From Mercenaria mercenaria (taxonomy: Eukaryota), in contig NC_069369.1 of assembly GCF_021730395.1 (NCBI RefSeq), forward strand, positions 29,805,250-29,869,249: DNA of 64,000 nucleotides, in the 5' to 3' direction. Below are positions 33,509 through 64,000 of this stretch, piece after piece. The translations under genes were made by a program, and so were the position numbers. Within the stretch, counting starts at the first letter, position 1, and each line of letters starts with the position of its first letter. The notes under the pieces are model-generated. The model had not been told where the DNA came from, did not search any database, and saw only the letters and a list, made by a program, of their open reading frames with translations.

Positions 33509-33727
33509 TCAACTAACCTTAACACTCTTTTCACTTCCTGTGTGCTTGTCCGTGTAGTTGACTTGTCCCCTCGAATCTACAATGATATTTGACCCACCAG
33601 CATTGACAATGTCCGTTATCCAATTTGGTTGCACCTTGTGAGCTGGAATGTCTGTTGGTGCTGATTCAGCATTCTGAACCCTAACCCTTGTAGTCTGACC
33701 TACAGTCACCTTACCCTTGACCTCTGT
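33509..33727 (-). CDS. NACHT-WD40 gene terminal exon (TGA stop at 33509-33511)
   Basis: Acceptor tctgtcatatag|ACA. TEVKGKVTVGQTTRVRVQNAESAPTDIPAHKVQPNWITDIVNAGGSNIIVDSRGQVNYTDKHTGSEKSVKVS*. Phase 0, consistent with the upstream exon. Confidence 0.75.
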   Translation of the reverse strand, partial: TEVKGKVTVGQTTRVRVQNAESAPTDIPAHKVQPNWITDIVNAGGSNIIVDSRGQVNYTDKHTGSEKSVKVS

Positions 33728-33756
33728 CTATATGACAGAAATAAATTAAAATATAT

Positions 33757-33995
33757 GAGCCGTGCCATGGGAAAACCAACATAGTGGCTTTGCGACCAGC
33801 ATGGATCCAGCCTGCGCATCCGCGCATCCGCGCAGTCTGGTCAGGATCCATGCTGTTCGCTAACAGTTTCTCCAATTCCAATAGGCTTTAAAAGCGAACA
33901 GCATGGAGCCTGACCAGACTGCGCGGATGCGCAGGCTGGTCTGGATCCATGCTGGTCGCACACCCACTATGTTGGTTTTCTCATGGCACGGCTCA
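33757..33995. mobile_element. Palindromic MITE family A copy, 29 nt from the last-intron acceptor of the NACHT-WD gene
   Basis: gagccgtgccatgggaaaaccaacatagtggctttgcgaccagcatggatccagcctgcgcatccgcgca...caggctggtctggatccatgctggtcgcacacccactatgttggttttctcatggcacggctca. Confidence 0.8.
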
Positions 33996-34204
33996 TATAT
34001 TAAGATGTGAGCTTTATTAAGAAACTAACATCTAAAAATTTGATCCACTTCAAAAAGTTATGGAAAAATCCAAATTTAAACAAAGACCTACACCCAATAA
34101 GAGTGGAAATTTATAGCTATTGCTGTGCAATGACTGGTTTAAATTCACGGCAACACCCATAAAGTATTAGTCAACAATTGGTAATATAATTAATAATATA
34201 TTAC

Positions 34205-34295
34205 CAGATTCACTAACATCACATTGCCATCCATTGTTGTCACCGAAAGTCTGCCACTAATATCACTTTTGATCTTCAATAACCATGACGAATGA
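34205..34295 (-). CDS. NACHT-WD40 exon
   Basis: Acceptor cttttcag|T. (D)HSSWLLKIKSDISGRLSVTTMDGNVMLVNL. Donor CTG|GTAATA. Phase 2 to 0. Confidence 0.75.
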
Positions 34296-35040
34296 CTGAA
34301 AAGAAAAAGATAAAATAGTTTCTTATTTCTTTCATGTGAAAAATTGTCACCCTGATTACTTCTCTGATTGTTCATGTTTCAACTGCCTAAGAACCTGAAT
34401 TTCTTACATACCTGACAGGATTTCCTCGTGTTAAAAGGTGCTGATGGAAATATCTGGCTTCAGCAAGGTAACTGTATAAGATGTAACGAGGCTCTGCAGA
34501 GTAACTGTAAAACAGTTACTCAAGAGCCACATATTTCCATCAGCACCTACAGCTAAAGACAGATTCTTTTTCTTGCACGCCATATTCTTTTATTTATAGA
34601 AGAAATAAAGTGACGCAAAATTAATGCTTTCTTTTAAGCACTATTTTATTACAGTAGCATGTCCAACATGCAAGAATAAAACTGTCTACCTACAAAGACA
34701 ATACCTGCAGTTGCAGGGAGGTGCATGCTATTTGGGCATGTTGCTAACAGAGACTACTGTAAATACACATTTATTAGTGCGAGTCGTTTTTCACACTTTT
34801 ATATACTTGTTCAATCAAGATTATACTAATGTTTATACATATTAAAGAATACTTTTCTGTTGTTGGTAAACTTTTTAGCCTTATTACATATATGTAACTT
34901 AAATTACAAATACATTTGGCTCTGTAACTTCAGTTCAGATAAAAAGTGGAAAACATTTTTCAGGAATCATAGGAAGAGGCCCTGCTCCTAAGGTTAAGGT
35001 ATGATATAAATGTGTTAAAAACTGCTCATAAAATGTACTC

Positions 35041-35198
35041 ACTCATAATCTGTTTGTTTAGATGCTATCAGTTTTGTATCCCACACTTTGATAGCTCCTG
35101 ACCACTCTGTGGTATAAATATAGTTGTCAGTGGGGTCATTTCTTGTGTTCAAGCTGAGAACTGGTGAATCGGTCTTCATTGTGTTTGTCCTTCTTGCA
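35041..35198 (-). CDS. NACHT-WD40 exon (WD repeat)
   Basis: Acceptor ttttaatttcag|T. (S)ARRTNTMKTDSPVLSLNTRNDPTDNYIYTTEWSGAIKVWDTKLIASKQTDY. Donor TGA|GTGAGT. Confidence 0.8.
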
Positions 35199-35326
35199 CT
35201 GAAATTAAAACAAGCCATGTCAAGCACATGGTATTAAAGTATCAACAAGCATCAAGAGAAAGGACAAGTGGTTTTCATACATACAGGATGAAGATTAATG
35301 ACTGAGTATTCACTGAAATAAAGTAC

Positions 35327-35445
35327 CTGACTAATTTTCCATTGATTTCAATAAGATTCCAGGTGGAGATGTACTCGTCATCAGACCCAGTCACAAATGT
35401 TGATGTATTCAACCAACTACCACAGGTTACAGCCTTTGTATGAGC
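35327..35445 (-). CDS. NACHT-WD40 exon (WD repeat)
   Basis: Acceptor ggttgttttcag|GCT. AHTKAVTCGSWLNTSTFVTGSDDEYISTWNLIEINGKLV. Donor CAG|GTACTT. Confidence 0.8.
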
Positions 35446-35741
35446 CTGAAAACAACCAATAAACAGCAGTTACTGTACAAATTCTCCTGGAGAAAAATTA
35501 ATTCTGTAATATTTCAAAAATGGCCCTAAACCGAGGATTTGAATAAACTGACCCTTGTGGGTGGTTGAGCAAAGACAGTTGTACAAACTTCCCTAGAGAT
35601 GAAAACCAAATCCCAAGTTTTTGGAATTTTCTTTATCTATTTCTAGCTATGGTGACCCTTATGTGCAGTAAAGTAAAACCACTTCAAGAAACATAAGAGG
35701 TCTGCAAAATGGTGGTCAAGAGGTAATCAGAACAAAGTTAT

Positions 35742-35933
35742 TTAACCTTTACCCTGATTAATTTCTATAATGATACAGTACCATTAACTGTTAAAAGGTA
35801 TGCTTACTAAAAATGATACTGACTGAATAGCAAACAGTGCAAATCATGATCAGACTACACTGATGTGCAGGCTGATCATGATCTATACTGGTCGCAAAGA
35901 CAGAACCAACTGTGTCAAGCATGGAAGGGGTTA
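35742..35933. mobile_element. MITE family B copy
   Basis: ttaacctttaccctgattaatttctataatgatacagtaccattaactgttaaaagg...caaacagtgcaaatcatgatcagactacactgatgtgcaggctgatcatgatctatactggtcgcaaag...ggggttaa. Confidence 0.7.
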
Positions 35934-36077
35934 AAGAAAAAAACGATGATACTGAATGACTGAAAACAGAAGAAATCACTGACAATAATAGCTCTGTTTC
36001 AGAATACTGTAAATATAGATCCTTCAGTGTTATGACTGCATATATTGATCAGCTGTTATATATTCATAGAATCTTAC

Positions 36078-36147
36078 CTTCAAAGTGGCCACACAGATGT
36101 ATTTTGATTGACTGTTTGTTGATGTCCATAACTTAACTACACCATCT
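36078..36147 (-). CDS. NACHT-WD40 exon
   Basis: Acceptor tttcttttttcag|A. (R)DGVVKLWTSTNSQSKYICVATLK. Donor AAG|GTAAGA. Confidence 0.8.
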
Positions 36148-36868: not shown

Positions 36869-37086
36869 CTGCTTCCTGTTAGTATAACTGGACTATCTCC
36901 GTTAAAGTTGCTGCACACAAAGGTCACTGGTGCATCATGTCCACCAATCACAGTCTGCGATTCCTGATCACATGACCACAACTTGATACTCTTGTCCAAT
37001 GAGGTGGTACACAGACGACCTTGGTTGTCAGAGGCAACTGAGAGCACCTTGTCAGAATGACCAGTCAAGCAGGAAAGTTCATTCGC
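36869..37086 (-). CDS. NACHT-WD40 exon (two WD repeats)
   Basis: Acceptor atcttaaatag|GCG. ANELSCLTGHSDKVLSVASDNQGRLCTTSLDKSIKLWSCDQESQTVIGGHDAPVTFVCSNFNGDSPVILTGS. Donor CAG|GTAAAC. Confidence 0.85.
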
Positions 37087-37601: not shown

Positions 37602-37726
37602 CTGAAGAGGGTACCAGAGTCTGGCCGTTCCATCATCCCCACAGGTTGCAACCATAACATTATCTAGTTTGGGTTGTAACATCTTGTCTGGTTTCTCCTC
37701 ATCTTGACCCCAGTCTCCATCCATAT
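37602..37726 (-). CDS. NACHT-WD40 exon
   Basis: Acceptor ttcttttgaag|AT. (D)MDGDWGQDEEKPDKMLQPKLDNVMVATCGDDGTARLWYPLQ. Donor CAG|GTACAC. Confidence 0.8.
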
Positions 37727-38284: not shown

Positions 38285-38429
38285 CTTGCAGACTTTCATC
38301 AAGAAGTTTGACAGATATATCACAGCCGTTTGCCCTCTGTGTATGTCCGTACAGTGTAGTGATTTCTACACCTTTATGAGACCACATCTTTACTGACCCA
38401 TCAGCACATGTTGATACAACACATCCATA
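38285..38429 (-). CDS. NACHT-WD40 exon (WD repeat)
   Basis: Acceptor tcattccaacag|TAT. YGCVVSTCADGSVKMWSHKGVEITTLYGHTQRANGCDISVKLLDESLQ. Donor CAAG|GTAAAT. Confidence 0.8.
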
Positions 38430-39075: not shown

Positions 39076-39238
39076 TTAACCTTAAGCACTTATTATTCAA
39101 AGGGGTGTTCACTGTAAATTTACTAACTGAATAGCGAACAGTGCAGACCATGATCAGACTGCATGGATGTGCAGGCTGATCTTGGTCTGCACTAGTCGCA
39201 AGGCAGATTCACTTGCTACTAGTAGGCTAAAGGTTAAG
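39076..39238. mobile_element. MITE family B copy (subfamily 2)
   Basis: cttaaccttaagcacttattattcaaaggggtgttcactgtaaatttactaactgaatagcgaacagtgcagaccatgatcagactgcatggatgtgcaggctgatcttggtctgcactagtcgcaaggcagattcacttgctactagtaggctaaaggttaag. Confidence 0.7.
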
Positions 39239-39779: not shown

Positions 39780-40345
39780 CCCCCGATGGCACTTTGAATG
39801 AATAGTTATGGCCGATGTTAGAGTTTAGGACCTTTGACCTACGGACCTGGGTCTTGCACGCGACAAGTCGTCTTACTGTGGTACACATTCATGCCAAGTT
39901 ATTTGAAAATCCATCCATGGATGACAAAGATATGGACCGGACACGCCCAACTATCATGAAAAATGACCTTTAACGTCTAAGTGTGACCTTGACCTTTGAG
40001 CTACGGACCTGGGTCTTGTGCGTGACACGTCGTCTTACTGTGGTACATATTCTTGCCAAGTTATTTGAAAATCCATCCATGGATGACAAAGATATGGACC
40101 GGACACGCCCAACTATCATGAAAAATGACCTTTAATGTCTAAGTGTGACCTTGACCTTTGAGCTACGGACCTGGGTCTTGCGCGCGACATGTCGTCTTAC
40201 TGTGGTACACATTCTTGCCAAGTTATTTGAAAATCCATCCATCGATGACAAAGATATGGACCGGACACAAAAACTGCGGACAGACTGACAGACTGTTCAA
40301 AAACTATATGCCTCCCTTCGGGGGCATAAAAAACCCAGCTGAGGT
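39780..40345 (+). mobile_element. Helentron-like satDNA carrier: 3 x ~183-bp units, (GACA/GACT)n and terminal hairpin
   Basis: Units gacctttgacctacggacctgggtcttgcacgcgacaagtcgtcttactgtggtacac.... Then ggacacaaaaactgcggacagactgacagactg and the hairpin atgcctccc ttcg ggggcat followed by aaaaaacc (40262-40345). Confidence 0.6.
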
Positions 40346-40375: not shown

Positions 40376-40503
40376 ACTATAGCCTATATGGTTGATAGAG
40401 GCCATGTGTCCCTTCATACTGTACTTCACTTTACATGCACCATCTCCTGTGGACTCTTTTGTTGTTTCACCTGGTACATTGCCAATCTTTGATACATCCC
40501 AAA
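40376..40503 (-). CDS. NACHT-WD40 exon
   Basis: Acceptor aatgcttgcag|TT. (V)WDVSKIGNVPGETTKESTGDGACKVKYSMKGHMASINHIGYS. Donor AGT|GTAAGT. Completes ...SSDFNLKVWD from the previous exon. Confidence 0.8.
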
Positions 40504-41346: not shown

Positions 41347-41506
41347 CTTTGAGATTGAAATCACTGGAAGCTGTGATGATGAAGTCTGCAGTGTTTGACC
41401 ATCTACAATCTGTGACCCAGTCATCATGTGCATTATGTATGGTATGTAAGGGTGTAGGATTCTGCTCGTCAAATGTACAGGCAATAATGTCCCATATTCT
41501 CACACT
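41347..41506 (-). CDS. NACHT-WD40 exon (WD repeat)
   Basis: Acceptor ttgttctttgtacag|AGT. SVRIWDIIACTFDEQNPTPLHTIHNAHDDWVTDCRWSNTADFIITASSDFNLK. Donor AAAG|GTATGT. Confidence 0.85.
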
Positions 41507-42417: not shown

Positions 42418-42535
42418 CATATCTCTGCTGCCTGTAGCAATCCTGTTTCCATTTTGATTGAAGGCACAACTTGTCACAGGTCCAGTGTGTGTTCCCATAA
42501 CACAAATTCTAGTTGGTACACTCTTCAAGATAGTC
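42418..42535 (-). CDS. NACHT-WD40 exon (WD repeat), paralogue of exon 43498-43652
   Basis: Acceptor ttggtttttgttacag|G. (R)TILKSVPTRICVMGTHTGPVTSCAFNQNGNRIATGSRDM. Donor ATG|GTAACA. Phase 2 to 0. Confidence 0.8.
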
Positions 42536-43497: not shown

Positions 43498-43652
43498 CTT
43501 TCATTTGAACTGTATTTCAATGGATTTTCATACACAGAACATGTACAGTCCACCGAAGTGATAGCAAAGTAATTCTGGCATATGTCTGCACTAAGAACTG
43601 GTTGTGTTAGAGTTGTGACTACACACGAATTCCTCAAGTTAACCTTCAGTAT
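43498..43652 (-). CDS. NACHT-WD40 exon (degenerate WD repeat), tandem paralogue of exon 42418-42535
   Basis: Acceptor ggttgttggttttttttacag|ATA. ILKVNLRNSCVVTTLTQPVLSADICQNYFAITSVDCTCSVYENPLKYSSNE. Donor AAAG|GTAAGT. Phase 0 to 2, which feeds the phase-2 start of the next exon. Confidence 0.65.
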
Positions 43653-43780
43653 CTGTAAAAAAAACCAACAACCAGTGTGCAAAACAAAGGGCACTTAAAA
43701 AAGCAAATCAGCCAGCGAATATTTTGATTTCAGCGCTTAACAACAAATTTACAGTCCCTTCAAACAAAATTAATGTACAA

Positions 43781-43984
43781 ACTCTAAGAAATTTCTATAA
43801 TGAACTTGTCCATCTTTCAATTTGGACAGTACTATAACTGTTAAAAGGGGTGCTTACCAAAAAGATACTGACTGAATGACGAACAGTGCAGATCATGATC
43901 AGACTGCACAGATGTGCAGGCTGATCGTGTTCTACATGGTCGCAAAGGCAGACTCAATCTTGTCCAGCATTATAAGGGGTTAAA
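43781..43984. mobile_element. MITE family B copy
   Basis: ...aaatttctataatgaacttgtccatctttcaatttggacagtactataactgttaaaaggggtgcttaccaaaaagatactgactgaatgacgaacagtgcagatcatgatcagactgcacagatgtgcaggctgatcgtgttctacatggtcgcaaaggcagactcaatcttgtccagcattataaggggttaa. Confidence 0.7.
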
Positions 43985-44041
43985 TGCATTTATTCTGAAT
44001 GTACTCCGTATTTTTCAAAAAAAGAAAGAAAATCATTGTAC

Positions 44042-44145
44042 CTTTGCTGAACAGTCATCTGACCCTGACAGTAAGAAAGCAGACGACATAAACTTCAGAC
44101 ATCTTACAGAAGCTGTATGCACCTGACTAGAATATAACTCAGTAC
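44042..44145 (-). CDS. NACHT-WD40 exon (WD repeat)
   Basis: Acceptor tgtgttattttgcag|GT. (G)TELYSSQVHTASVRCLKFMSSAFLLSGSDDCSAK. Donor AAG|GTACAA. Confidence 0.8.
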
Positions 44146-45274: not shown

Positions 45275-45422
45275 CAGACAGTACATCGTGCACTTTGATT
45301 ACACCTGAATGGTATCCAATAGCAACCAAATCCTGTTGTGGTGATATAGCAATGGAAACTGCTGGGCCTAGTTGTTCTGTGCCAACAGTTATGATTGGTT
45401 TTCCAAGATGACCTGACCACAC
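45275..45422 (-). CDS. NACHT-WD40 exon
   Basis: Acceptor attatataacag|GTG. VWSGHLGKPIITVGTEQLGPAVSIAISPQQDLVAIGYHSGVIKVHDVLS. Donor TCTG|GTAAGT. Confidence 0.8.
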
Positions 45423-45863: not shown

Positions 45864-45962
45864 CTTGACCTTGTGATCATCGCTAACTGTAATGAGTTCC
45901 TTGCCAGTTGGTGAAAACGTCAACTTATTTATTGGTAACGCATGTCCCTCAATGTTACCAAC
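45864..45962 (-). CDS. NACHT-WD40 exon (WD repeat)
   Basis: Acceptor tatgaactttcag|GTT. VGNIEGHALPINKLTFSPTGKELITVSDDHKVK. Donor AAG|GTAGGG. Confidence 0.8.
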
Positions 45963-46168: not shown

Positions 46169-46288
46169 TTGTGAGCCAGTATCTGCTGCCCATAGTTTAA
46201 CATCTCCGTCTAGAGCTGCTGAGGCAATATGACGTCCTGACGGTGAGTAGGCCACATCTCGTACTGACGACTGGTGACCTCGCAATAC
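46169..46288 (-). CDS. NACHT-WD40 exon (WD repeat)
   Basis: Acceptor ttgttgacattacag|GTA. VLRGHQSSVRDVAYSPSGRHIASAALDGDVKLWAADTGSQ. Donor CAA|GTATTG. Confidence 0.85.
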
Positions 46289-46779: not shown

Positions 46780-48262
46780 ACAGATCAACTTTGTGAAAAC
46801 AATATGTACAAAGTCAGGGGCCATAACTCCTACATAACTGAATGAATCTGGACGCGAAACCCCAGGTGCACAACTACACATGCTGACCAACATTCCTGTA
46901 AAGTTTTGTGACTCTACATCAAATACTTTTGGAGCTAGGCATGACACATTCTTGGAAGGACAAGGGCAAATACTTTTGGAGCTACGCGCGACACAACATT
47001 AAAATGACCAAGTTTTAACTAAGTCAGGGGCCATAACTCCTACATAACTGAATGAATCCGGACGCGAAACCCCAGGTGCACAACTGCACATACTGACCAA
47101 CATTCCTGTAAACTTTGGTGACTCTAGGTCAAATACTTTTGGAGCTACGCGCGACACAACATTAAAATGACCAAGTTTTAACTAAGTCAGGGGCCATAAC
47201 TCCTACATGACTGAATGAATCCGGACGCAAAACCCCAGGTGCACAACTGCACATGCTGACCAACATTCCTGTAAACTTTGGTGACTCTAGGTCAAATACT
47301 TTTGGAGCTACGCGCGACACAACATTAAAATGACCAATTTTTTACTAAATCAGGGGCCATAACTCCTACACGACTGAATGAATCTGGATGCAAAACCCCA
47401 GTTGCACAACTACACATGCTGACCAACATTCCTGTAAAGTTTTGTGACTCTACGTCAAATACTTTTGGAGCTAGGCATGACAAATTCTCGGAAGGACGGA
47501 CGGACAAGGGCAAATACTTTTGGAGCTACGCGCGACACAACATTAAAATGACCAAGTTTTAACTATTAAAGTCAGGGGCCATAACTCCTACACACCTGAA
47601 TGAATCCGGACGCGAAACCCCAGGTGCACAACTGCACATGCTGACCAACATTCCTGTAAACTTTGGTGACTCTAGGTCAAATACTTTTGGAGCTACACGC
47701 GACACAACATTAAAATGACCAATTTTTAACTAAGTCAGGGGCCATAACTCCTACACGACTGAATGAATCTGGACGCGAAACCCCAGATGCACAACTGCAC
47801 ATGCTGACCAACATTCCTCTAAACTTTGGTGACTCTAGGTCAAATACTTTTGGAGCTACGCGCGACACAACATTAAAATGACCAATTTTTTACTAAATCA
47901 GGGGCCATAACTCCTACACGACTGAATGAATCTGGATGCAAAACCCCAGGTGCACAACTACACATGCTGACCAACATTCCTGTAAAGTTTTGTGACTCTA
48001 CGTCAAATACTTTTGGAGCTAGGCGCGATACAACACTAAAATGACCAATTTTTACAAAGTCAGGGGCCATAACTCCTACAAGACTGAATGAATCTTGACG
48101 CGAAACCCCAGGTGCACAACTACACATGCTGACCAACATTCCTGTAAAGTTTTGTGACTCTACGTCAAATACTTTTGGAGCTAGGCGCGACACATTCTCG
48201 GAAGGACAGACGGATGGATGGACAGACGGACAATGGCAAATCTATATGCTCCCCCAAAGTGG
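46780..48262 (+). mobile_element. Helentron-like satDNA carrier: about 8 units (150-205 bp), (GGAC/GATG)n and terminal hairpin
   Basis: Units ...aagtcaggggccataactcctaca..actgaatgaatc.ggacgc.aaaccccaggtgcacaact.cacatgctgaccaacattcctgtaaa.ttt.gtgactcta.gtcaaatacttttggagcta.gcgcgacac.... Terminus ggaaggacagacggatggatggacagacggac... then hairpin atgctccccc aaagt gggggcat followed by aaaaaac (48190-48262). Confidence 0.6.
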
Positions 48263-48717: not shown

Positions 48718-49150
48718 TAAACGGTGGGCCAGTGGTCTAGTGGTAACACGCTTGACTTTCAATCCAGAGGTCCGGGATTCGAATCCCGGTCCAGGCACTG
48801 GAAATTTCTGAGATGCTCTTGAGTGTCTCCCACCTAACTAGAAGCCTGTATTGGTTCTTCCCAGGAAAGACGGCTTAGCGTGTTTCGATGCTATACACCG
48901 GGCACGTTAAAGAACCAGACTGTCTATTCGCAAAGAGCTAGGCTAAGTTCGCCGGACAGGCCTGTATTTACAAAGGATTTCTCTCTATCTGTTCTGGGGG
49001 CTTTATCTCACTCTGTCCCTCTGGTCAGATAGCTCTGTGTCATCCTCTAGTAGAGGATGAATTTTGCGCCCTGTGTGGCTGCGTTTGCTATATGTAAAGC
49101 GCCTTTGAACATGTTTATCATGAAAAGGGCACTATATAAATCTGGTATAA
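48718..49150 (+). mobile_element. tRNA-derived SINE (second family)
   Basis: tRNA-like head ggtgggccagtggtctagtggtaacacgcttgactttcaatccagaggtccgggattcgaatcccgg, a long body, and a tail ...tataataataaccc. Confidence 0.6.
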
Positions 49151-49254: not shown

Positions 49255-49360
49255 TGCTTTCTTTGTTTTATGGAAAATGTCCCAGATTTTGATTGTACTG
49301 TCCCACTGTCCTGACACTATCTTCTGACCTTCGGGATGGAAACTCACACAATTCACTGGG
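49255..49360 (-). CDS. NACHT-WD40 exon (WD repeat)
   Basis: Acceptor gtttctataattag|C. (S)PVNCVSFHPEGQKIVSGQWDSTIKIWDIFHKTKKA. Donor GCA|GTAAGT. Confidence 0.8.
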
Positions 49361-49649: not shown

Positions 49650-50420
49650 GAGTAGATCCAATTAGATGGTCTGGACAAGTGGATCCAATCAGTAATTCAA
49701 GGGCCATAAATCAAAAGTGCCTGGGCGGATTTGGCTAGTTATCGAACTTGGCTAAGGTCTTATGGCCAAATACATTTTGTTTAAGTTTGGTGAAGATTGG
49801 ATGAGAAATGTTCGACTGAGAGAGCAGACAAGAGTAAAAAGGCCGATTTTTTTATAATTCAAGGGCCGTAACTCCAAAATGCCTAGACCGACTTAGCTAG
49901 TTATCGAACTTGGCCGAGGTCTCACGGTCAAACACATTTTGTTCAAGTTTGGTGAAGATTGGATGAGAAATGTTCGACTTAAGAGTGCGGACAAGAGTAA
50001 AAAGGAGGATTTTTCGGTAATTCAAGGGCCATAACTCCAAAATGCCTGGACCGATTTGGCTAGTTATCGAGCTTGTCTGAGGTCTCATGGTCAAACACAT
50101 TTTGTTCAAGTTTGGTGAAGATCGGATGAGAAATGTTCGACTTAAGAGTGCGGACAACATTAAAAAGGCTGATTTTTGGTAATTCAAGGGCCATAACTCC
50201 AATACGCCTGGACCGATTTGGCTAGGTATCGAACTTGGCCGAGGTCTTATGGTCAAACACATTTTGTTTAAGTTTGGTGAAAATCAGATGAGAAATGTTC
50301 AACTTAGAGTGCGGACAAGCTTTGTGACAGACAGACAGACACACAGACGGACAGACAGACAGACACACAGACTGGAGTAAATCAATATGTCTCCCACACC
50401 ACTATGTGGTGGGAGACATA
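49650..50420 (+). mobile_element. Helentron-like satDNA carrier: about 4.5 x ~150-bp units, (GACA)n and terminal hairpin
   Basis: Units ...aattcaagggcc(a/g)taactccaaaatgcctgg.ccga.ttggctagttatcgaacttggc..aggtct.a.ggtcaaacacattttgttcaagtttggtgaagat.ggatgagaaatgttcgact.aagag.gcggacaag.... Then gtgacagacagacagacacacagacggacagacagacagacacacagac and hairpin atgtctcccacaccactatgtggtgggagacat. Confidence 0.6.
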
Positions 50421-51087: not shown

Positions 51088-51237
51088 GATCCAACTTTGA
51101 ATTCACATATCATACTGCCTTTCTTCATGTCCCAGATTTTAATTGTACAATCCCAGGATGCTGTTGCCAGAACATTTCCTGATTTATCTGAAGAACAGGA
51201 ATTCACCCGTCTCTGGTGACCTTTCAGGGAAAACAGT
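51088..51237 (-). CDS. NACHT-WD40 exon (WD repeat)
   Basis: Acceptor cataatttcag|A. (R)LFSLKGHQRRVNSCSSDKSGNVLATASWDCTIKIWDMKKGSMICEFKVG. Donor ATC|GTAAGT. Confidence 0.85.
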
Positions 51238-51599
51238 CTGAAATTATGATGAATATAAAACAGGCAAATTAGTATGGCATTATTGAAAAGGAAGCAGACA
51301 AGGAAATTATTCTTTCAAATATTTCTCTGTTGTTAATCAATTATCCATGCTGTCTGATGTTCAGAACAAAAACCTATTTTTGTTGCATTAAAACATTGCT
51401 CAGTAATATTCAGTTATGTAATATGGAAAGCATTTCAATGACTTCTGACTAGATCCACGCTGAGCTGACTTGCTCTCAGCCAGTAAATGACAACTTTCCC
51501 ACAAAAACAAAGGAAAGAAAAAAGGTGGTAGATGAATACCTGTCAACACCATGTCTACAGTCAAATGTTCTCAAACTAAACTGCATATTAAGTATAATT

Positions 51600-51827
51600 G
51601 AGCCGCGCCATGAGAAAACCAACATAGTGGCTTTGCGACCAGCATGGACCCAGACCAACCTGTGCAGTCTGGTCAGGATCCATGCTGTTCGCTTTCAAAC
51701 TCTATTGCAATTAGAGAAACTGTTAGCGAACAGTATGGATCCTGACCAGACTGCGCGGATGCGCAGGCGGGTCTGGATCCATGCTGGTCGAAAAGCCACT
51801 ATGTTGGTTTTCTCATGGTGTGGCTCA
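51600..51827. mobile_element. Palindromic MITE family A copy, 88 nt downstream of the exon 51916 donor
   Basis: gagccgcgccatgagaaaaccaacatagtggctttgcgaccagcatggacccagaccaacctgtgcagtctggtcaggatccatgctgttcgc...caggcgggtctggatccatgctggtcgaaaagccactatgttggttttctcatggtgtggctca. Confidence 0.8.
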
Positions 51828-51915
51828 TATAATTAAACCCAGAACTCTTCCAAAGGCAATCAGAGTATCTCCAAACTGATATACATGACAATGCAGTGAA
51901 AACATGTAAACATAC

Positions 51916-52040
51916 CTATGACCTTCACTGACGTCCCACACACTGACTGAAGCATCGGAAGATACACTACATAGTTTGTTACTACCAACAAAACATACAT
52001 CTGTTATTTTATCGGCATGTCCTCTGAAACTTCTTATCTC
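51916..52040 (-). CDS. NACHT-WD40 exon (WD repeat)
   Basis: Acceptor ctttattgtttacag|GAG. EIRSFRGHADKITDVCFVGSNKLCSVSSDASVSVWDVSEGH. Donor CATAG|GTATGT. Directly continues ...HLYDLSTGK from exon 54965-55060. Confidence 0.85.
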
Positions 52041-52199
52041 CTGTAAACAATAAAGTTGCAAAAATTAAAATACATTAACAACTTAAACTTTGTTACGATA
52101 AGAAACAGATGTGTAAATTCCTTGAAATTTTATATAAAAGATTTTCAAACGGGCTTTCAACAGAGCAAACAAAAAACAAAGTCCCATAACTATGCAGAA

Positions 52200-52760
52200 T
52201 ATTTATCTAAAAGAACGTAACATGCACCATGCACAACTAGGGTTGGTACTGATCACTTGTGTGAAGTTTCATTAAATTGTGTGCAAGGTTTCGGAAGATT
52301 AGGCGCGCACAAGATTGCATATGCAGACTGTATGTACATAGTATGTTAACAAAAAACAAAGTCCCATAACTCTGCAATTTTTGTTGTTGACAGAACCTAA
52401 CATGCCCTATGCACATCTAATGTTGTTAATGATCACTTGTGTGAAGTTTCATTAAATTGTGTCAAGGGGATGAGGAGAGATGGCGCGCACAAGATTGTGT
52501 CTATGTATATAGTAAAGTAACAAAAAACAAAGTCCCGTAACTGCAATTTTTTTTTCTGAAAGAACCTAACATGCCCCATGCACAACTACTGAATCAGATG
52601 TTACTGATCACCTGTGTGAAGTTTCATTAAACTGTGTCAAGGGGATGAGGAGAGATGGTGCGCACAAGATTGTGTCTACGGACAGACAGACGGACGGATG
52701 GACAGACAGACAACCTGAAACCGGTATAGCCCCCCATTACAACTTTGTTGTCGGGGGGTA
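52200..52760 (+). mobile_element. Helentron-like satDNA carrier (same family as 12398-13440, opposite orientation) with (GGAC/GACA)n and hairpin terminus
   Basis: Units ...cacttgtgtgaagtttcattaaattgtgtcaagggg.tgaggagagatgg.gcgcacaagattgtgtcta.g.... Then ggacagacagacggacggatggacagacagac and the hairpin ccccccattacaactttgttgtcgggggg. Confidence 0.6.
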
Positions 52761-54830
52761 CAATTACGACAGTTAACAGGTGTGTTAAGCATCAATCCCT
52801 TCTCACTAGTAGTTAATGCGATACAAGCTTACATACAAAAAGCTTAACCAGAAATTGCTAAGTCTAACAAGGGGTACAACTTCATAACAAGAGGACCATG
52901 ATGGTCCTGAATCGCTCACCTCTTTCCACATGACCCAGTTTTGAGTATGACGTCGTTTTTTCTATTATTTGACATAGTGACCTAGTTTTTGAGCTCATTT
53001 GACCCAGTTTTGAACTTGACCTAGATATTATCAAGATAAAAATTCTGACCAATTTTCATGAAGATCCATTGAAAAATATGGTCTCTAGAGGTCAAAAGAT
53101 TTTAATAATTTTAGACCTACTGACCTAGTTTTTGACCGCAGTTGACCCAGTTTCAAACCTGACCTAGATATCATCAAGATGAACATTCAGACCAAATTTC
53201 ATACAGATCCCATGAAAAGTATGGCCTCTAGAGAGGTCACAAGGTTTTTTTTATTATTTGACCTACTGACCTAGTTTTTTATGGAACGTGACCCAGATTC
53301 AAACTTGACCTAGATATCATCAAGGTGAACATTCTGACCAATTTTTATGGAGATCCATTTGCAAGTATGGTCTCTAGAGAGGTCACAAGGTTTTTCTATT
53401 TTTAGACCTAATGACCTAGTTTTTGACCGCACATGACCCTGTTTAGAACTTGACCTAGATATCATCAAGATGAACATTCAGATCAATTTTCATACAGATC
53501 CCATGAAAAATATGGCCTTTAGAGAGGTCACAAGGTTTTTCTATTATTTGACCTACTGACCTAGTTTTTGATGGCACCTGACCCACTTTCAAATCTGACC
53601 TAGATATCATCAAGATAAACATTCAGACCAATTTTCATACAGATCCCATGAAAAATATGGCCTCTAGAGAGGTCACAAGGTTTTTCTATTATTTGACCTA
53701 CTGACCTAGTTTTTGACTGCACGTGACCCACTTTCGAACTTGACCTAGATATCATCAAGGTGAACATTCTGACTAATTTTCATGAAGATCTCATGAAATA
53801 TATGGCCTCTAGAGAGGTCACAAGGTTTTTCTATTTTTAGACCTACTGACCTAGTTTTTGACCGCACATGATCCAGTTTCGAACTTGACCTAGATATCGT
53901 CAAGATGAACATTCAGACCAACTTTCATACAGATCCCATGAAAAATATGGCCTCTAGAGAGGTCACAAGGTTTTTCTATTATTTGACCTACTGACCTAGT
54001 TTTTGAAGGCACGTGACCCAGTTTCGAACTTGACCTAGATATTATCAAGATGAACAATCTGACCAATTTTCATGAAGATCTTGTGAAATATATGGCCTCT
54101 AGAGAGGTCACAAGGTTTTTCTATTTTTAGACCTACTGACCTAGTTTTTGAAGGCACGTGACCCAGTTTCAAACTTGACCTAGATATCATCAAGGTGAAC
54201 ATTCTGACCAAGTTTCATGAAGATCTTGTGAAATATATGGCCTCTAGAGAGGTCACAAGGTTTTTCTATTTTTAGACCTACTGACCTAGTTTTTGATGGC
54301 ACATGACCCAGTTTCGAACTTGACCTAGATATCATCAAGATGAACATTCTGACCAACTTTCATAAAGATCCCATGAAAAATGTGACCTCTAGAGTGGTCA
54401 CAAGCAAAAGTTTACGGACGGACGCACGGACGACGGACGACGGACACCGCGCGATCACAAAAGCTCACCTCGTCACTTTGTGACAGGTGAGCTAAAAAAT
54501 GGAAAATAAAGTTATGGAACCTGTGCATAGCAGGTCAGATTATCAGAGTAAAGAGGTGCATTAAGTGTTAATCTATTCTCCCTAGTAGTTACTGAGATAC
54601 AAAGTTACATATAAAAGCTTTGTCAGACATTGCAGTCAAAAAAGGAACATAACAAAGAAAACAGAATTATGGAGTCTGTACACTCCCTGTCAGATAATTA
54701 TAGTGAACAAGTGTGTGAAGTTTCAATCCATTCCTTCAAGTTGATACTGAAGGTAAAGCTTACATACAACATTAAACAAATCCAGACATTGAGGCTGATG
54801 AACAGGTGAGTGCAATAGCTCTACCTTGCC
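52760..54830 (+). mobile_element. Helentron-like satDNA carrier: about 9.5 x ~167-bp units, (GGACG)n and hairpin terminus at 54410-54520, followed by two ~140-bp flank units
   Basis: Units ...ttgacctactgacctagtttttga..gcac.tgacccagtttcgaacttgacctagatatcatcaagatgaacattc.gaccaa.tttcat..agatc.catgaaaaatatggcctctagagaggtcacaaggtttttctatt.... Terminus acggacggacgcacggacgacggacgacggac...gatcacaaaagctcacctcgtcactttgtgacaggtgagc. The flank units (54520-54830) also follow the terminus at 52760-52900. Confidence 0.6.
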
Positions 54831-54964: not shown

Positions 54965-55060
54965 CTTTCCAGTACTGAGATCATACAGATGTACAAGACA
55001 GTCCAGTCCACCGCAAGCAAACTGTCTGTTATCATGGGATATACTAACACATGTCATTGG
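54965..55060 (-). CDS. NACHT-WD40 exon (WD repeat)
   Basis: Acceptor ttttattttatattccag|CCA. PMTCVSISHDNRQFACGGLDCLVHLYDLSTGK. Donor AAG|GTACGA. Confidence 0.85.
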
Positions 55061-55340: not shown

Positions 55341-55521
55341 CTCGGGTAAGTTGGATATAGTGAGGTAGCATGGGTCAATGTTGACTGGTTTACTATTCCA
55401 CTCAATCAAAGATTTCTGACTTCTGGGAATGGTGTCAGAATTGAGTACAGTCTGTACATCTCTTGCAGGTTGGGAGGTAGAGTTTTCATTGTAAGCTTGC
55501 TGCCAGGTCAATGCTGGATGA
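55341..55521 (-). CDS. NACHT-WD40 exon (linker region)
   Basis: Acceptor cacttcag|T. (S)HPALTWQQAYNENSTSQPARDVQTVLNSDTIPRSQKSLIEWNSKPVNIDPCYLTISNLPE. Donor GAG|GTATTA. Confidence 0.75.
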
Positions 55522-55845: not shown

Positions 55846-56207
55846 AGTAGTGGTTCACCAGTATGCACAAATGTTTGCACTAAGGTTCATGAGAGGGGAT
55901 CTCTGTAAATCCTACCAAAAATGCCTTTCCAAACTTTATATGCAAATTTTATAGTCAGCCAAGTAGTACATTGAAATGGATGTAAATTGTCAAAAGTACT
56001 GAAATTGAGTTCTATATAATCATTGTAACAGTTTTTATGACTACTGAGCTTGTCCAGGCATGATGAAGGTAGCAGCAGACAGTTTTGTCTTCTTTTAAAA
56101 GTGGTACCCCTGTGTCAAAAGTCAGTAGTAAAATACTTGAAGCAAAGCAGACCATCACAATTTAAGGCTCAAGACAAATGTAATACATTGATAATATGAG
56201 CCGTGCC

Positions 56208-56385
56208 ATGAGAAAACCATCCGCGCAGTCTGGTCAGGATCCATGCTGTTCGCTAACAGTTTCTCTAATTGCAGGCTTTAAAAGCGTACAGCATGGATCC
56301 TGACCAGACTGCGCGGATGCGCAGGCTGGTCTGGATCCATGCTGGTCGCAAAGCCACTATGTTGGTTTTCCCACGGCACGGCTCA
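56208..56385. mobile_element. Palindromic MITE family A copy (short), 22 nt downstream of the exon 56408 donor
   Basis: gagccgtgccatgagaaaaccatccgcgcagtctggtcaggatccatgctgttcgctaacagtttctctaattgcaggctttaaaagcgtacagcatggatcctgaccagactgcgcggatgcgcaggctggtctggatccatgctggtcgcaaagccactatgttggttttcccacggcacggctca. Confidence 0.8.
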
Positions 56386-56407
56386 AATGTATCCAGTGTG
56401 AACATAC

Positions 56408-56513
56408 CTTGAGAGTATATGTAAACTCCTGGAGACAAAGGATTTATATTCCTTCACAGCAGGTTTCTCAAAAAATTTCATCTGTTCACGCTCTTGTGTC
56501 TTGTTGCTTGTTT
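56408..56513 (-). CDS. NACHT-WD40 exon
   Basis: Acceptor cttttttttctgtag|AA. (E)TSNKTQEREQMKFFEKPAVKEYKSFVSRSLHILS. Donor CAAG|GTATGT. Confidence 0.75.
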
Positions 56514-56976: not shown

Positions 56977-57091
56977 CTAACGGTTGGTAGTCATCTATGA
57001 GTTCAGCTGTCAATCCCAGCATGCACTTGTTGTAAATGAACTTAAGGTTGCAGACGACATCTTCCAGGTCAGCAAAACTACCAGACTTGTT
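56977..57091 (-). CDS. NACHT-WD40 exon
   Basis: Acceptor cttcatgtag|AAC. NKSGSFADLEDVVCNLKFIYNKCMLGLTAELIDDYQPL. Donor TTAG|GTAAAA. Confidence 0.75.
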
Positions 57092-57688: not shown

Positions 57689-57777
57689 CAAATGATATGG
57701 CAGTTCCCGGAATGCACGTATAGACTTTCCACTAAATGTACCATCTCTCTCTGGATCTGCCAGACTGTAGAAATATC
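57689..57777 (-). CDS. NACHT-WD40 exon
   Basis: Acceptor gttgcattttcag|GA. GYFYSLADPERDGTFSGKSIRAFRELPYHL. Donor TTG|GTAAGA. The frame differs from the six-frame track ORF but is the only one consistent in phase with both neighbouring exons. Confidence 0.7.
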
Positions 57778-58197: not shown

Positions 58198-58310
58198 CAG
58201 CAATCAGACGGTGAAGATGTAGTTCTGTTTCCATGGCACCAGCAGACTTCAAGTACCTCTGTCTCACTGCCTGTATTATATCTACATGGGACAGACTTAA
58301 TCTGCTACTC
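58198..58310 (-). CDS. NACHT-WD40 exon
   Basis: Acceptor gttttatgttatag|G. (W)SSRLSLSHVDIIQAVRQRYLKSAGAMETELHLHRLIA. Donor GCTG|GTGAGT. Confidence 0.75.
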
Positions 58311-58629: not shown

Positions 58630-58810
58630 CATGAGTCAAGTGGATCATTGAGAAATCCCTGTAAGGCTCTCTGTAACTGGGCAAAAACAGCAGACGGCAC
58701 ACATTCCTCTGGACTCGGTTTCATGTTCATTATCTCTTTGACCTTTGGTTTTTCACCTCCCAGAATTCCAAACAAACTCAAGAGGTCATGTAGTTCAACT
58801 TGCTCAAGAC
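58630..58810 (-). CDS. NACHT-WD40 exon
   Basis: Acceptor acttacacatttccag|GT. GLEQVELHDLLSLFGILGGEKPKVKEIMNMKPSPEECVPSAVFAQLQRALQGFLNDPLDS. Donor CATG|GTAGGT. Confidence 0.8.
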
Positions 58811-59163: not shown

Positions 59164-59296
59164 CATCTCTGGCACAAACAAGAAGGGACAATGCTGTTGC
59201 TATGGTATCTTTCCCAAGGTCAGTCTCCATTCGTGACATTACTTCCTGTAGAAGTGTGGGAACTGTCTGAGGTAATGCCTTCAGCTTGGATGTCAT
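59164..59296 (-). CDS. NACHT-WD40 exon
   Basis: Acceptor tctcttcttcag|ATG. MTSKLKALPQTVPTLLQEVMSRMETDLGKDTIATALSLLVCARD. Donor GATG|GTAAGC. Confidence 0.8.
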
Positions 59297-59313
59297 CTGA
59301 AGAAGAGAGACGA

Positions 59314-59485
59314 TTAACCTTTAGCCTGCTAAATTTCTAAAATGGACTAATCCATCATTCAATTTGGACAGTGCCATTTACTATCTGAAGGGGTGTTCAA
59401 TGAAAATTTACTGACTGATCATGAATAGCGAAGGCTGATCTTGGTCTGCACTGGTCCCAAAGGCAGTATCACTTGCCAACAACAG
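59314..59485. mobile_element. MITE family B copy (subfamily 2)
   Basis: ttaacctttagcctgctaaatttctaaaatggactaatccatcattcaatttggacagtgccatttactatctgaaggggtgttcaatgaaaatttactgactgatcatgaatagcgaaggctgatcttggtctgcactggtcccaaaggcagtatcacttgccaacaacaggctaaatattaa. Confidence 0.7.
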
Positions 59486-60035: not shown

Positions 60036-60128
60036 CTTTTCAAAGAGACCATATACTCTCAGTTCCTCACAAGCAAGACTTAGGTACAAGGGAACATTTG
60101 CTTCCTTCTTGGACACCAACAGTTTCAT
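60036..60128 (-). CDS. NACHT-WD40 exon
   Basis: Acceptor tttttgtttcag|ATG. MKLLVSKKEANVPLYLSLACEELRVYGLFEK. Donor AAG|GTGATC. Confidence 0.8.
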
Positions 60129-60562: not shown

Positions 60563-60739
60563 CTGGTTATTAAATGGTGACTCATCTAAAGCCTTGCTAT
60601 GTACAGCTAGATGACTCTTTACAACCTCGGCCTTGTCCCACATGTCCAGACCTTCTACAGTGACCTCTGTGACCTTTCGTCTCCGTAGCGACTGGTGGAA
60701 TTTGCCTTGTGTCAGGCAGGTTATAACAAATATCACATT
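60563..60739 (-). CDS. NACHT-WD40 exon (NACHT region)
   Basis: Acceptor ctatttcttttgcag|AAT. NVIFVITCLTQGKFHQSLRRRKVTEVTVEGLDMWDKAEVVKSHLAVHSKALDESPFNNQ. Donor CAG|GTATAT. Confidence 0.8.
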
Positions 60740-60784
60740 CTGCAAAAGAAATAGAGGATATTTGTTTGTTTTGAGTGAATATGG

Positions 60785-61794: not shown

Positions 61795-62140
61795 GACGGA
61801 TCACACTTGTCGCATGTGCGCCTCATGAGATCCAATCTGGCAAAATCCACTCAAGCCAAATACAGCATCCCAGATCGAGCTACTGCTATTTTATCGACCT
61901 GGTGAAAGTAACTTGAGTTTCAGGTAAACAGAAGGTCGTATGTAACTGAAGCAATGAAAAATGCACACTTGTCGCATGTGTGCCTCATGAGATCCAATCT
62001 GGCAAAATCCACTCAAGCCGAATACAGCATCCCAGATCGAGCTACTGCTATTTTATCGACCTGGTGAAAGTAACTTGAGTATCGGGTTAACAGAAGGTCG
62101 TATGTAACTGAAGCAATGAAAAATGCCAGGAGTCATTAAA
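61795..62140. repeat. Tandem duplication, 2 x ~175 bp, intronic
   Basis: cacacttgtcgcatgtg(c/t)gcctcatgagatccaatctggcaaaatccactcaagcc(a/g)aatacagcatcccagatcgagctactgctattttatcgacctggtgaaagtaacttgagt.tc.gg.taa.cagaaggtcgtatgtaactgaagcaatgaaaaatg occurs twice. Confidence 0.7.
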
Positions 62141-62356
62141 AAGAATTTGTTCATTATCTTTGGGGCAACCTCTGGTACCTGGTCAAAAATCTGTGGGAGA
62201 TGTGCATCTAACATGTTAAACCATCAATACTGACTACAACTGGGGAACCATAACTTACATTTGGGACCTCTCATACCAGTCTTTATTGTGGAAGATGAGC
62301 TGGTTCCATGTTATCTAAACCATCCATAAACAATTTAAGAAAGAACCACAGCTTAC

Positions 62357-62504
62357 CTTTGGGACAACCTCTGGTAACCAGTCTAGATTGTGTGGAAGAT
62401 GTGCTGGTTCCATGTTGTCTAAACCATCAATAAACACTACAAGAGGGGAACCACAGTAGGTTGCAGACTCCTGTAACATCTCTTCAAACTTAGCAACCAA
62501 GTTC
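62357..62504 (-). CDS. NACHT-WD40 exon (Walker B)
   Basis: Acceptor ctatttgcag|G. (K)NLVAKFEEMLQESATYCGSPLVVFIDGLDNMEPAHLPHNLDWLPEVVPK. Donor AAG|GTAAGC. The hhhhDGLD NACHT Walker B motif. Confidence 0.85.
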
Positions 62505-62556
62505 CTGCAAATAGTCAATGACAATTTTTATAGCACTAGCCTCTTAACAATATTAT

Positions 62557-62768
62557 TAACCTTTAGCCGCTAAATTTTTAAAATGGACTCATCCATCATT
62601 GAATTTGGGCAATACCATTTATTATTTAAAGGGGTGTTTACTGAAAATTTACTGACTGAATAGTGAGCAGGGCAGACCATGATCAAACTGCATGGATGTA
62701 CTGGCTGATCTTGGTCTGCACTGATCGCAAAGGCAGAATCACTTGCCGTCAACAGGCTAAGGTTTAAT
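62557..62768. mobile_element. MITE family B copy (subfamily 2)
   Basis: ttaacctttagccgctaaatttttaaaatggactcatccatcattgaatttgggcaataccatttattatttaaaggggtgtttactgaaaatttactgactgaatagtgagcagggcagaccatgatcaaactgcatggatgtactggctgatcttggtctgcactgatcgcaaaggcagaatcacttgccgtcaacaggctaaggtttaa. Confidence 0.7.
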
Positions 62769-63026
62769 TTATATATAATACTGTTTGTATCTGAAGTAAG
62801 TCTTTTTCCCCCAACAATTGCTTCAGTTGCACTTGCAAGACTATGTAAATATATACCATGCAGATTTTACTGGAGCTGGCAATGGGTCTGAACCCTTCCC
62901 TTCTGGATCCTCCAATGAATGCTAATAATACACTGGGACCAAAATTAGAACACTATTCTTTATCATGTCATTGAAATCAATTTAAGAAACATATGGTAAA
63001 CTTTTTTTAATAAGAAAGTAACATAC

Positions 63027-63202
63027 TTCATGTCTTCTGGTATTTCCAAATTGAGGCTGAATCTAGTGTTCAGTTCATGGCACAGTCGTTTCAGAGTTGC
63101 TACGATGTTTGTGGAGCCTGGCGCAGCACCAACAAAATGTGTAAGTATTGACAGACCACTGTCACACTTGGATGCTTGCTGGTAATCTGTTATCAAACTT
63201 GC
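63027..63202 (-). CDS. NACHT-WD40 exon (NACHT region)
   Basis: Acceptor ctacattgtag|GCA. ASLITDYQQASKCDSGLSILTHFVGAAPGSTNIVATLKRLCHELNTRFSLNLEIPEDMK. Donor GAA|GTATGT. Confidence 0.8.
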
Positions 63203-63378
63203 CTACAATGTAGATAACTCATACGTAGTTACCTTGTACTATTAAAGTAAAAATAGCATTAAAGCTTTTGAGCATTTCATAACATTGTACAAATTTAACA
63301 AATCATGTTTATGAAACTTTGACTTGTTTGGCAAATTACTGGAGACTGGGTATGTCTGGTTTCAGTTTTATTTCATGA

Positions 63379-63592
63379 TTTAACCCTTACCCTGCTAAAT
63401 TTCTATAATGAACTTGTCCATCTTTCAATTTGGACAGTACTATTTACTGTTAAAAGGGATGCATACCAAAAAGATACTGACTGAATGGCAAACAGTGCAG
63501 ATTTTTATTAGACTGCACAGATGCGCAGGCTGATCAAGATCTACACTGGTCGCAAAGGCAGAATCTATCGTGTCCAGCATGATAAGCGTTAA
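63379..63592. mobile_element. MITE family B copy
   Basis: ttaacccttaccctgctaaatttctataatgaacttgtccatctttcaatttggacagtactatttactgttaaaagggatgcataccaaaaagatactgactgaatggcaaacagtgcagatttttattagactgcacagatgcgcaggctgatcaagatctacactggtcgcaaaggcagaatctatcgtgtccagcatgataagcgttaa. Confidence 0.7.
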
Positions 63593-63882
63593 TCAATAAT
63601 TATATCTTTTTAAATAAAACTAATAGTTATAATCTCAAATTCACAACTTGCACTGTATTTGAAGATCTGTAGAGTGATTAGCAACACGAAAGTCATAATC
63701 TCAAAATTTTATTTGATTTTCAGTAAAATATATGGGTAAGCATTTGAGAAGGATTTCATATGTCAGCGTCATTAAATTTCAATACACATATACTTGCAAA
63801 ATTAAGTGCTAGCTACAAATCATTATTAACAGTAAAGCATTGAAATCAGAAAATTATGTTTAGTAAACACTATCTCTCTTAC

Positions 63883-64000
63883 CAGCAGAGCTGACTTTCC
63901 AGTGCCCGGTTTTCCAGCAAGGGCAATAACTCCTGATGACATGTCTGACATCATTTTCACACATTCCTTTCTCAGTTTGGAACGTCCAACAAAAACTTTC
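63883..64000 (-). CDS. NACHT-WD40 exon (Walker A / P-loop); the gene continues upstream beyond the window
   Basis: Minus-strand translation ...FVGRSKLRKECVKMMSDMSSGVIALAGKPGTGKSALL. Donor CTG|GTAAGA. The GxPGxGKS P-loop of a STAND/NACHT NTPase. Confidence 0.8.

Follow-up and report, generated by a model that had tools for sequence, protein, structure and literature searches.

Which protein is encoded by the large minus-strand gene in a 64,000-nucleotide stretch of the Mercenaria mercenaria genome (NCBI RefSeq assembly GCF_021730395.1, contig NC_069369.1, positions 29,805,250 to 29,869,249 of the forward strand; this whole stretch is called the window, and position 1 is its first letter), and where does its coding sequence end? 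A first-pass annotation had described a NACHT-WD40 NTPase of the STAND class (multi-domain ATPases of signal transduction), with 32 exons between 64000 and 33509 and an N-terminus beyond the window, and had left the choice between NWD1 and TEP1. Our analysis indicates, with a probability of roughly 0.9, that the window holds about two-thirds, on the 3' side, of a bivalve TEP1 orthologue (TEP1 being telomerase protein component 1, a TROVE-NACHT-WD40 protein associated with vaults), and that its coding sequence is predicted to run two exons further than had been proposed.

The exon model was made without the first-pass list, by a dynamic programme over AG/GT splice sites with codon-usage log-odds trained on obvious coding pieces of the window, and was corrected by tblastn of two bivalve homologues, P0003 (Mizuhopecten yessoensis XP_021378535.1) and P0004 (Mya arenaria WAR22045.1), and by direct reading of the junctions. 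It comprises 34 exons and 1501 codons over ~32 kb, from 64000 to 31922, and all 34 exons have AG acceptor and GT donor boundaries and consistent phases, with zero internal stops or frameshifts over 4.5 kb of coding sequence. The part at or above 33509 (64000 to 33518) consists of 32 exons and 1424 codons, which reproduces the 32 phase-consistent GT-AG exons of the first-pass annotation (1425 amino acids (aa) had been claimed), and the ranges 63883-64000 and 62357-62504 match exactly. The motifs quoted earlier are likewise all found on the minus strand where they had been placed: the Walker A motif GKPGTGKS at 63892-63915, the Walker B motif LVVFIDGLDN at 62414-62443, ASWDCTIKIWD at 51129-51161, GHSDKVLSVA at 37033-37062 and DKSIKLW at 36976-36996. 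GSRDMSVRIWD is present only once exon 22 (end 42418), which supplies GSRDM, is spliced to exon 23 (start 41506), which supplies SVRIWD, and therefore the splicing first proposed at this junction was right. The coding signal is far beyond chance, with a Pfam WD40 E-value of 2.9e-102 for the spliced protein and database matches that cover 100% of the query at E=0.

Read from its start, the intact frame specifies a P-loop NTPase of the NACHT type, then an NWD1-like winged helix, a helical domain and a WD region, and the NACHT-then-WD40 architecture with an N-terminus outside the window is upheld. Both Walker motifs, A (GKPGTGKS) and B (VVFIDGLD), are intact and align with the motifs of the orthologues. 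Pfam scores for the NTPase and winged-helix region were obtained from a draft model, and those for WD40 and the propellers from the final spliced protein. In the draft, HTH_NWD1 (34.8 bits, cut-off 27), NPHP3_N (30.5, cut-off 24.8) and nSTAND1 (30.8, cut-off 27.1) were all above threshold, as was AAA_22 in the NTPase region. The helical region is collinear with the orthologues through …FVSRSLHILS…LTWQQA.NE. In the WD region, the TEP1-specific second beta-propeller (PF25047, Beta-prop_TEP1_2nd) matches aa 838-1082 with 231.3 bits (cut-off 89), Pfam WD40 gives 9 significant stretches, and a hidden Markov model (HMM) trained on the protein's own repeats recognises 15 WD units, so that the earlier count of about 14 repeats was fair for recognisable units. 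The region spans 958 aa, enough room for ~21 blades, the degenerate blades not being individually resolved.

The family assignment follows from these modules and from the relatives of the protein. An exhaustive phmmer search was seeded with P0001, the nearest database fragment (42% identical), as a proxy; it placed proteins of 2300-2750 aa on top, whose NACHT domain lies around residues 830-1240, and three of these top proteins carry TROVE, Beta-prop_TEP1_2nd and the C-terminal propeller model Beta-prop_TEP1_C. In the closest homologues (P0003, P0004, P0006) TROVE lies upstream of NACHT. Source names of the type 'telomerase protein component 1(-like)' come from scallop, Mya, Priapulus, sea urchin, crinoid, amphioxus, lungfish and paddlefish, and every strong database match with an informative name, at 100% query coverage, is called telomerase protein component 1 or TROVE-domain protein. 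With both TEP1 propeller models passing and full-length TEP1/TROVE proteins as relatives, the earlier hedge between NWD1 and TEP1 resolves to TEP1. TROVE, vWA and DUF4062 are all found in bivalve homologues, PF13271 (DUF4062) matching P0004 at residues 892-976, and the motif S(V/I)TE(L/M)E is present in P0003, P0004, P0045 and P0046; this motif may contain the counterpart of the catalytic Glu of human TEP1. Upstream of 64000, exons for roughly 700-1200 aa would be expected from the orthologue lengths, with TROVE, vWA and DUF4062 as the predicted effector part; of the upstream domains suggested in the first-pass annotation, TROVE is thus retained by orthology, and CARD and the death domain are not.

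Comparison with the orthologues gives a consistent picture along the whole length. In the database search, the full model was 60% identical to the Mya arenaria protein (with a coverage of 81%); the values were 49% for Tegillarca, 46% for Patella and 45% for Batillaria, and outside the molluscs 39% for both Capitella and amphioxus and 37% for Strongylocentrotus. When aligned by MAFFT with eight orthologues, the spliced protein stays collinear between FVGR (residue 1213 in the scallop sequence P0003) and the common C-terminus, and the sole differences are one 6-aa gap and one 17-aa insertion, which sits in the blade at model aa 1009 and is also present in Mya. The proteins of Mya (WAR22045.1), Tegillarca granosa (KUTeg_005153, P0159) and Mizuhopecten (XP_021378535.1) have the same domain order from P-loop to C-terminus as the clam gene, with aligned identities of 60%, 49-52% and ~50%, respectively, and the gene seems to stand closer to Mya than to either scallops or ark clams. 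In the database, Mya is represented by a model that is partial or mis-joined towards the C-terminus (81% coverage), whereas the present model runs in full to the conserved C-terminus. Vertebrate TEP1 (telomerase-associated protein 1, vault protein p240), for which lungfish XP_043914013.1 and paddlefish XP_041095472.1 served as stand-ins, is ~30% identical over 1420 aligned residues and shares the NACHT domain, the helical domain and a WD region ending in a GD.LG..YF..W C-terminal blade; the lungfish Walker A is degenerate (GGPSEGKT), whereas that of the clam is canonical. The vertebrate N-terminus, with TEP1 repeats, TROVE, vWA and DUF4062, would have its counterpart here beyond the window.

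Several points weigh against the TEP1 assignment. The Pfam NACHT model scored 18.8 on the draft, below its cut-off of 26.7, although the sister P-loop STAND models pass. The gene model is supported by homology, and its junctions are predictions. The defining domains TROVE, vWA and DUF4062 would lie outside the window and are expected by orthology, not seen. That the gene is a one-to-one orthologue and not a lineage paralogue is argued from best hits and collinearity only, because the species' own protein is absent from the searched databases, where no match exceeds 60% identity. Finally, all statements on function, whether on vaults, vault RNA or NADase activity, are carried over from mammals. 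Two further searches yielded little: a word-index protein search with a rough concatenation of the NACHT exons gave two matches only, neither of them a bivalve TEP1, and the NACHT-helical part, searched against PDB sequences, had no match at E<=0.01.

For mammalian TEP1 the domain order, 21 WD repeats and the loss of vault RNA in TEP1-null mice have been described; the protein binds vault RNAs via TROVE/vWA and is present in a few copies inside the vault caps, and binding of vault or telomerase RNA and residence in vaults are known from mammals only (PMC7916137). The DUF4062 of human TEP1, beside NACHT, is a TIR-like NADase that has relatives among bacterial anti-phage effectors; it is active within vaults and its specific activity increases with concentration (bioRxiv 10.64898/2026.05.01.722283, 10.64898/2026.09.04.749371). 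The authors of these preprints propose that the WD40 part senses an unknown signal and that NACHT then oligomerises and switches the NADase on, in a manner comparable to APAF-1 (bioRxiv 10.64898/2026.05.01.722283, 10.64898/2026.09.04.749371). Transferred to the clam protein, the off-window TROVE/vWA part may bind small vault-type RNAs and tether them in vault particles, as in mammals, the NACHT NTPase encoded in the window may act as a nucleotide-driven oligomerisation switch, and the WD40 propellers may provide a docking or sensing surface that keeps the switch off until a signal arrives, as in APAF-1. The window would then contain the protein's switch and sensor or docking half, with the half for effector function and RNA binding outside it.

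A different emphasis is conceivable and, in our judgement, unlikely: in this bivalve, TEP1 might act mainly as an innate-immune sensor of the NOD-like receptor (NLR) kind with a TIR-like NADase, or its N-terminus might depart from the TROVE-vWA-DUF4062 order. The WD40 propellers, including the lineage-specific 17-aa surface insertion shared with Mya, would in that case detect a pathogen or damage signal, and NACHT oligomerisation would activate the upstream TIR-like NADase, making the protein something other than a passive vault or telomerase scaffold. The most similar NACHT regions after TEP1 belong to prokaryotic proteins with DUF4062-NACHT and WD40 or TPR domains (for example Candidatus Methanoperedens MCX9011172.1; Avs-type defence NLRs), with 31% identity over 49% of the model; these proteins are much shorter, are devoid of TROVE and of TEP1 propellers, and have a role in anti-phage defence.

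Returning to the TEP1 orthologue, it is quite unlikely that the locus is instead a lineage-specific paralogue, or a 5'-truncated or decaying duplicate, rather than a functional single-copy gene. The gene is only partly visible, echinoderms have additional short 'TEP1-like' genes, and the window is rich in repeats, with a local triplication of the 3' end of exon 3 that shows past duplication activity here. A decaying copy is nevertheless difficult to reconcile with 34 open, in-phase, AG/GT-bounded exons and with conservation that is even along the full length, catalytic motifs included, and identity declines with taxonomic distance as it does for an orthologue.

An NWD1/NWD2-type gene, with DUF4062, NACHT and WD40 and no TROVE, is very unlikely. 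The winged-helix region does match HTH_NWD1, the ~1460 aa past the P-loop would also be compatible with NWD1, and the N-terminus is outside the window; HTH_NWD1 is, however, a shared domain that the Pfam lists record in TEP1 proteins too, and both TEP1-specific propeller models are well over their cut-offs. None of the 108 matches at E<=1e-30 is named NWD1 or NWD2, the named full-coverage matches being all TEP1, TROVE-domain or the uninformative 'hypothetical protein', and the few matches that were looked up below the TEP1 group are archaeal, bacterial and protist DUF4062-NACHT proteins, none of them NWD1. On the presence of the TEP1-specific modules and the absence of NWD-named proteins among these strong matches, membership of NWD1/NWD2 was rejected. 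These proteins share with TEP1 the STAND plan of DUF4062 next to NACHT followed by WD40, together with the HTH_NWD1 winged helix, and differ in having neither TROVE nor the TEP1-specific propellers; purified human NWD1 and NWD2 show no NADase activity, unlike TEP1 (bioRxiv 10.64898/2026.05.01.722283). APAF-1 follows an analogous logic, from an effector to a STAND NTPase to WD40 propellers that are presumed to keep the switch off, but its NTPase is of the NB-ARC and not the NACHT type, with different Walker motifs, only two propellers and a CARD effector. The Pfam scan of the NTPase region gave no NB-ARC match at E<=0.1, and the APAF-1/NB-ARC class of STAND proteins is therefore excluded, in agreement with the earlier remark that APAF-1 did not fit.

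The 3' end is where our model departs from the first-pass annotation. Position 33509, given there as the lower boundary, is the last base of an in-frame TGA (33511-33509) that is reached by reading through two codons past the donor AAG/GTTAGT at 33518, which is close to consensus. Downstream, exon 33 (32844-32743), encoding VHAAEITCVERDQGFTFTGSKDKTIKIWDKDMNQ, and exon 34 (32053-31922), encoding VGQFFCTSPVTSMMAVGNSTSRQVPIVYGDELGFVNFLTWNCC and a stop, have phases 0/0 and good acceptors. Together they match the whole Pfam model of the TEP-1 C-terminal beta-propeller (PF25048, Beta-prop_TEP1_C; aa 1426-1498, profile positions 1-73 of 73) with 139.5 bits against a cut-off of 32, and this C-terminal module is present in 7 of the 8 aligned orthologues, most of which end where the model ends (…GDQLGNIHFLTWHQ in scallop). 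On the predicted splicing, the true coding end is the TAG at 31924-31922, two exons beyond 33509. That the gene stops at 33509, with the two downstream WD-like exons belonging to another transcript or being relics, could appeal to the TGA just after exon 32 and to the predicted nature of the junctions, but against the near-consensus donor, the in-phase exons, the complete 73-position match and the shared C-terminus it is scarcely credible.

TEP1 is already annotated across metazoans, several bivalves included, and a copy in a new species is an ordinary gene of little importance alone. What is added here is a homology-checked exon model from NACHT to the C-terminus in a species lacking a database protein, with a corrected 3' end and, for the upstream effector asked about in the first-pass annotation, the expectation of TROVE, vWA and DUF4062. 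The family gained interest in 2026 through the demonstration that the DUF4062 of human TEP1 is a TIR-like NADase, a finding that links TEP1 with NAD+-depleting immune effectors, and an invertebrate TEP1 with a canonical Walker A could serve as a comparison for NACHT-WD40 control of such an enzyme.

The individual exons of the TEP1 model, all on the minus strand, are as follows. Exon 1 in the window (63883-64000, aa 1-39, frame from 63999) has its 5' end cut by the window edge and is identified by Walker A, the donor CTG/GTAAGA and tblastn to P0003 and P0004. The NACHT core continues in exon 2 (63027-63202, aa 40-98; HFVGAAPGSTNI…), which is AG/GT-bounded and 60-65% identical to bivalve TEP1, and Walker B lies in exon 3 (62357-62504, aa 98-147), found by both tblastn and the dynamic programme. 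The NTPase domain ends in exon 4 (60563-60739, aa 148-206; …LDMWDKAEVV…ESPFNNQ), which is collinear with P0001 and P0003, and exon 5 (60036-60128, aa 207-237; MKLLVSKKEANVPLYLSLACEELRVYGLFEK) was placed by tblastn. The winged-helix (HTH_NWD1) region begins in exon 6 (59164-59296, aa 238-281) and continues in exon 7 (58630-58810, aa 282-342), both supported by Pfam and tblastn. The helical domain occupies exons 8 (58198-58310, aa 342-379) and 9 (57689-57777, aa 380-409; …RELPYHL), placed by tblastn, exon 10 (56977-57091, aa 410-447; …CNLKFIYNKCMLGL…), on which the dynamic programme, tblastn and alignment agree, and exon 11 (56408-56513, aa 448-483; …YKSFVSRSLHILS), from sequence reading and tblastn. 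Exon 12 (55341-55521, aa 483-543), a linker (HPALTWQQAYNE…), was absent from the first dynamic-programming run and was recovered by tblastn and alignment.

The first WD blade is encoded by exon 13 (54965-55060, aa 544-575), and further WD repeats follow in exon 14 (51916-52040, aa 576-617), exon 15 (51088-51237, aa 617-667, with ASWDCTIKIWD), exon 17 (46169-46288, aa 703-742) and exon 18 (45864-45962, aa 743-775), all five by tblastn and the repeat HMM, and in exon 16 (49255-49360, aa 667-702), which is 89% identical to the Mya protein P0004. Exon 19 (45275-45422, aa 776-824; tblastn and alignment) carries a degenerate blade and exon 20 (44042-44145, aa 825-859) a WD blade, the latter defined by a P0004 tblastn match at 44146-44039. 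Exon 21 (43498-43652, aa 860-911; tblastn and Pfam) lies inside Beta-prop_TEP1_2nd and is followed by exon 22 (42418-42535, aa 911-950, …ATGSRDM; tblastn, Pfam and the repeat HMM) and exon 23 (41347-41506, aa 951-1003, SVRIWD…SSDFNLK; tblastn), which ends at the donor AAAG/GTATGT. The 17-aa insertion common to the Mya arenaria protein is included in exon 24 (40376-40503, aa 1004-1046; tblastn and alignment); a WD blade with 89% identity to P0004 is found in exon 25 (38285-38429, aa 1046-1094), and an acidic loop plus a blade in exon 26 (37602-37726, aa 1095-1136; tblastn and alignment). Two WD repeats (GHSDKVLSVA…DKSIKLW) are encoded by exon 27 (36869-37086, aa 1136-1209; tblastn and the repeat HMM). 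Exon 28 (36078-36147, aa 1209-1232) comes from the dynamic programme and alignment, exon 29 (35327-35445, aa 1233-1272) is a WD repeat by tblastn and the repeat HMM, exon 30 (35043-35198, aa 1272-1324) is a degenerate blade by these two and alignment, and exon 31 (34205-34295, aa 1324-1354) aligns with the orthologues. Exon 32 (33518-33727, aa 1355-1424), ending at AAG/GTTAGT, was the last exon of the first-pass annotation; beyond its span lie exon 33 (32743-32844, aa 1425-1458), with the first half of the C-terminal propeller domain, and the terminal coding exon 34 (31922-32053, aa 1459-1501 plus the TAG), which ends …GDELGFVNFLTWNCC.

Some exon candidates were discarded. A 317-nt (nucleotide) read-through form of exon 23, proposed by the dynamic programme, was set aside on homology and on the donor AAAG/GTATGT, and a 23-nt form of exon 20 from the same source on the P0004 match, which covers the longer exon. 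Micro-exons drawn from a 145-bp (base pair) tandem repeat (54491-53433) under a low intron penalty have no counterpart in the orthologue alignment, and neither have the pieces 59972-59937, 56341-56305, 49044-49012, 34471-34412, 31601-31575 and 28985-28924, which were rejected as spurious.

The window is AT-rich (GC 33-41%), with many tandem and dispersed repeats and with coding sequence in short open frames split by long non-coding stretches, and this overall character is that of an invertebrate animal genome. In intron 3 of TEP1, at 62158-62351 on the minus strand and directly past the exon 3 donor, there are two decayed tandem copies of exon 3's terminal ~97 nt, with 81% and 76% identity and with stop codons inside (…FMDGLDNMEPAHLPQ and a stop); these pseudo-exon fragments could provide cryptic splice sites. 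Tandem arrays of 145-180-bp units, in 2-10 copies with 82-96% matches, occur mostly within TEP1 introns (52957-54404, 46963-48194, 49692-50319, 39829-40268, 61802-62126, 52168-52678, 12496-13362 and 6765-7243) and look satellite- or MITE-derived (miniature inverted-repeat transposable element); such arrays are common in bivalve genomes. A dispersed ~170-bp repeat at 56150-56480 has copies at 1-219, 17064-17292, 22021-22214, 33753-33998 and 51598-51830, with 75-93% identity; at every site it shows self-matches on both strands, and is therefore hairpin or MITE-like. A second dispersed family is represented at 43780-43990, 63397-63586, 32437-32636, 35775-35935, 62572-62741 and 39096-39211.

Two tRNA-like signals were read as repeat-derived. 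An ARAGORN 'tRNA-Stop' at 56221-56315 on the minus strand is intronic and lies inside a copy of the dispersed ~170-bp repeat, and was not taken as a gene; an Rfam tRNA match at 48726-48793 on the plus strand (31.2 bits, cut-off 29), in a TEP1 intron and with no ARAGORN call, is probably a tRNA-derived repeat. Transposon remnants comprise a reverse transcriptase fragment at 7835-8164 (plus strand; RVT_1 E=1.1e-11), more frames resembling long interspersed nuclear elements at 8119-8707 and 11712-12143, and a DDE_1 transposase fragment at 15916-16170 (minus strand; E=3.4e-11). Reverse transcriptase and DDE transposase fragments, tandem arrays and MITE-like repeats sit in several introns.

Downstream of TEP1 and convergent with it, a second gene lies at 16194-17928 on the plus strand and encodes SET and MYND domains (SMYD-like). 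Its frames hold the start of the SET domain (GRGLFAKKQFKEGDVILEE; Pfam SET E=0.003), a MYND zinc finger (E=5.6e-5) and then …HYPPETASIMLLLKMIAMVKQ, and the gene resembles SMYD5. A 39-nt minisatellite at 17891-20602 on the plus strand, with roughly 60 copies and higher-order periods of 96-140 nt, has been amplified from the 5' splice-site region of one exon of this gene; its unit joins the final ~20 nt of the SMYD-like exon (TGATTGCCATGGTTAAACAG) to the opening ~19 nt of the intron (GTAGGGATAGATACAGCAC). The unit spans the exon-intron border, and therefore each copy repeats the CAG/GTAGGG donor and keeps the reading frame (13 codons, 'ALIVMVKQVGIDT'); at 18-20 kb this minisatellite gives rise to the strong positive GC skew. 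Between the two genes, at 25608-28837, there are long arrays of a 30-nt unit (AGTAAATAATGGCGCAGTTAGCTGGTGACT) with up to ~35 copies per block and 72-96% matches, whose minus strand is open as 'SHQLTAPLFT' repeats.

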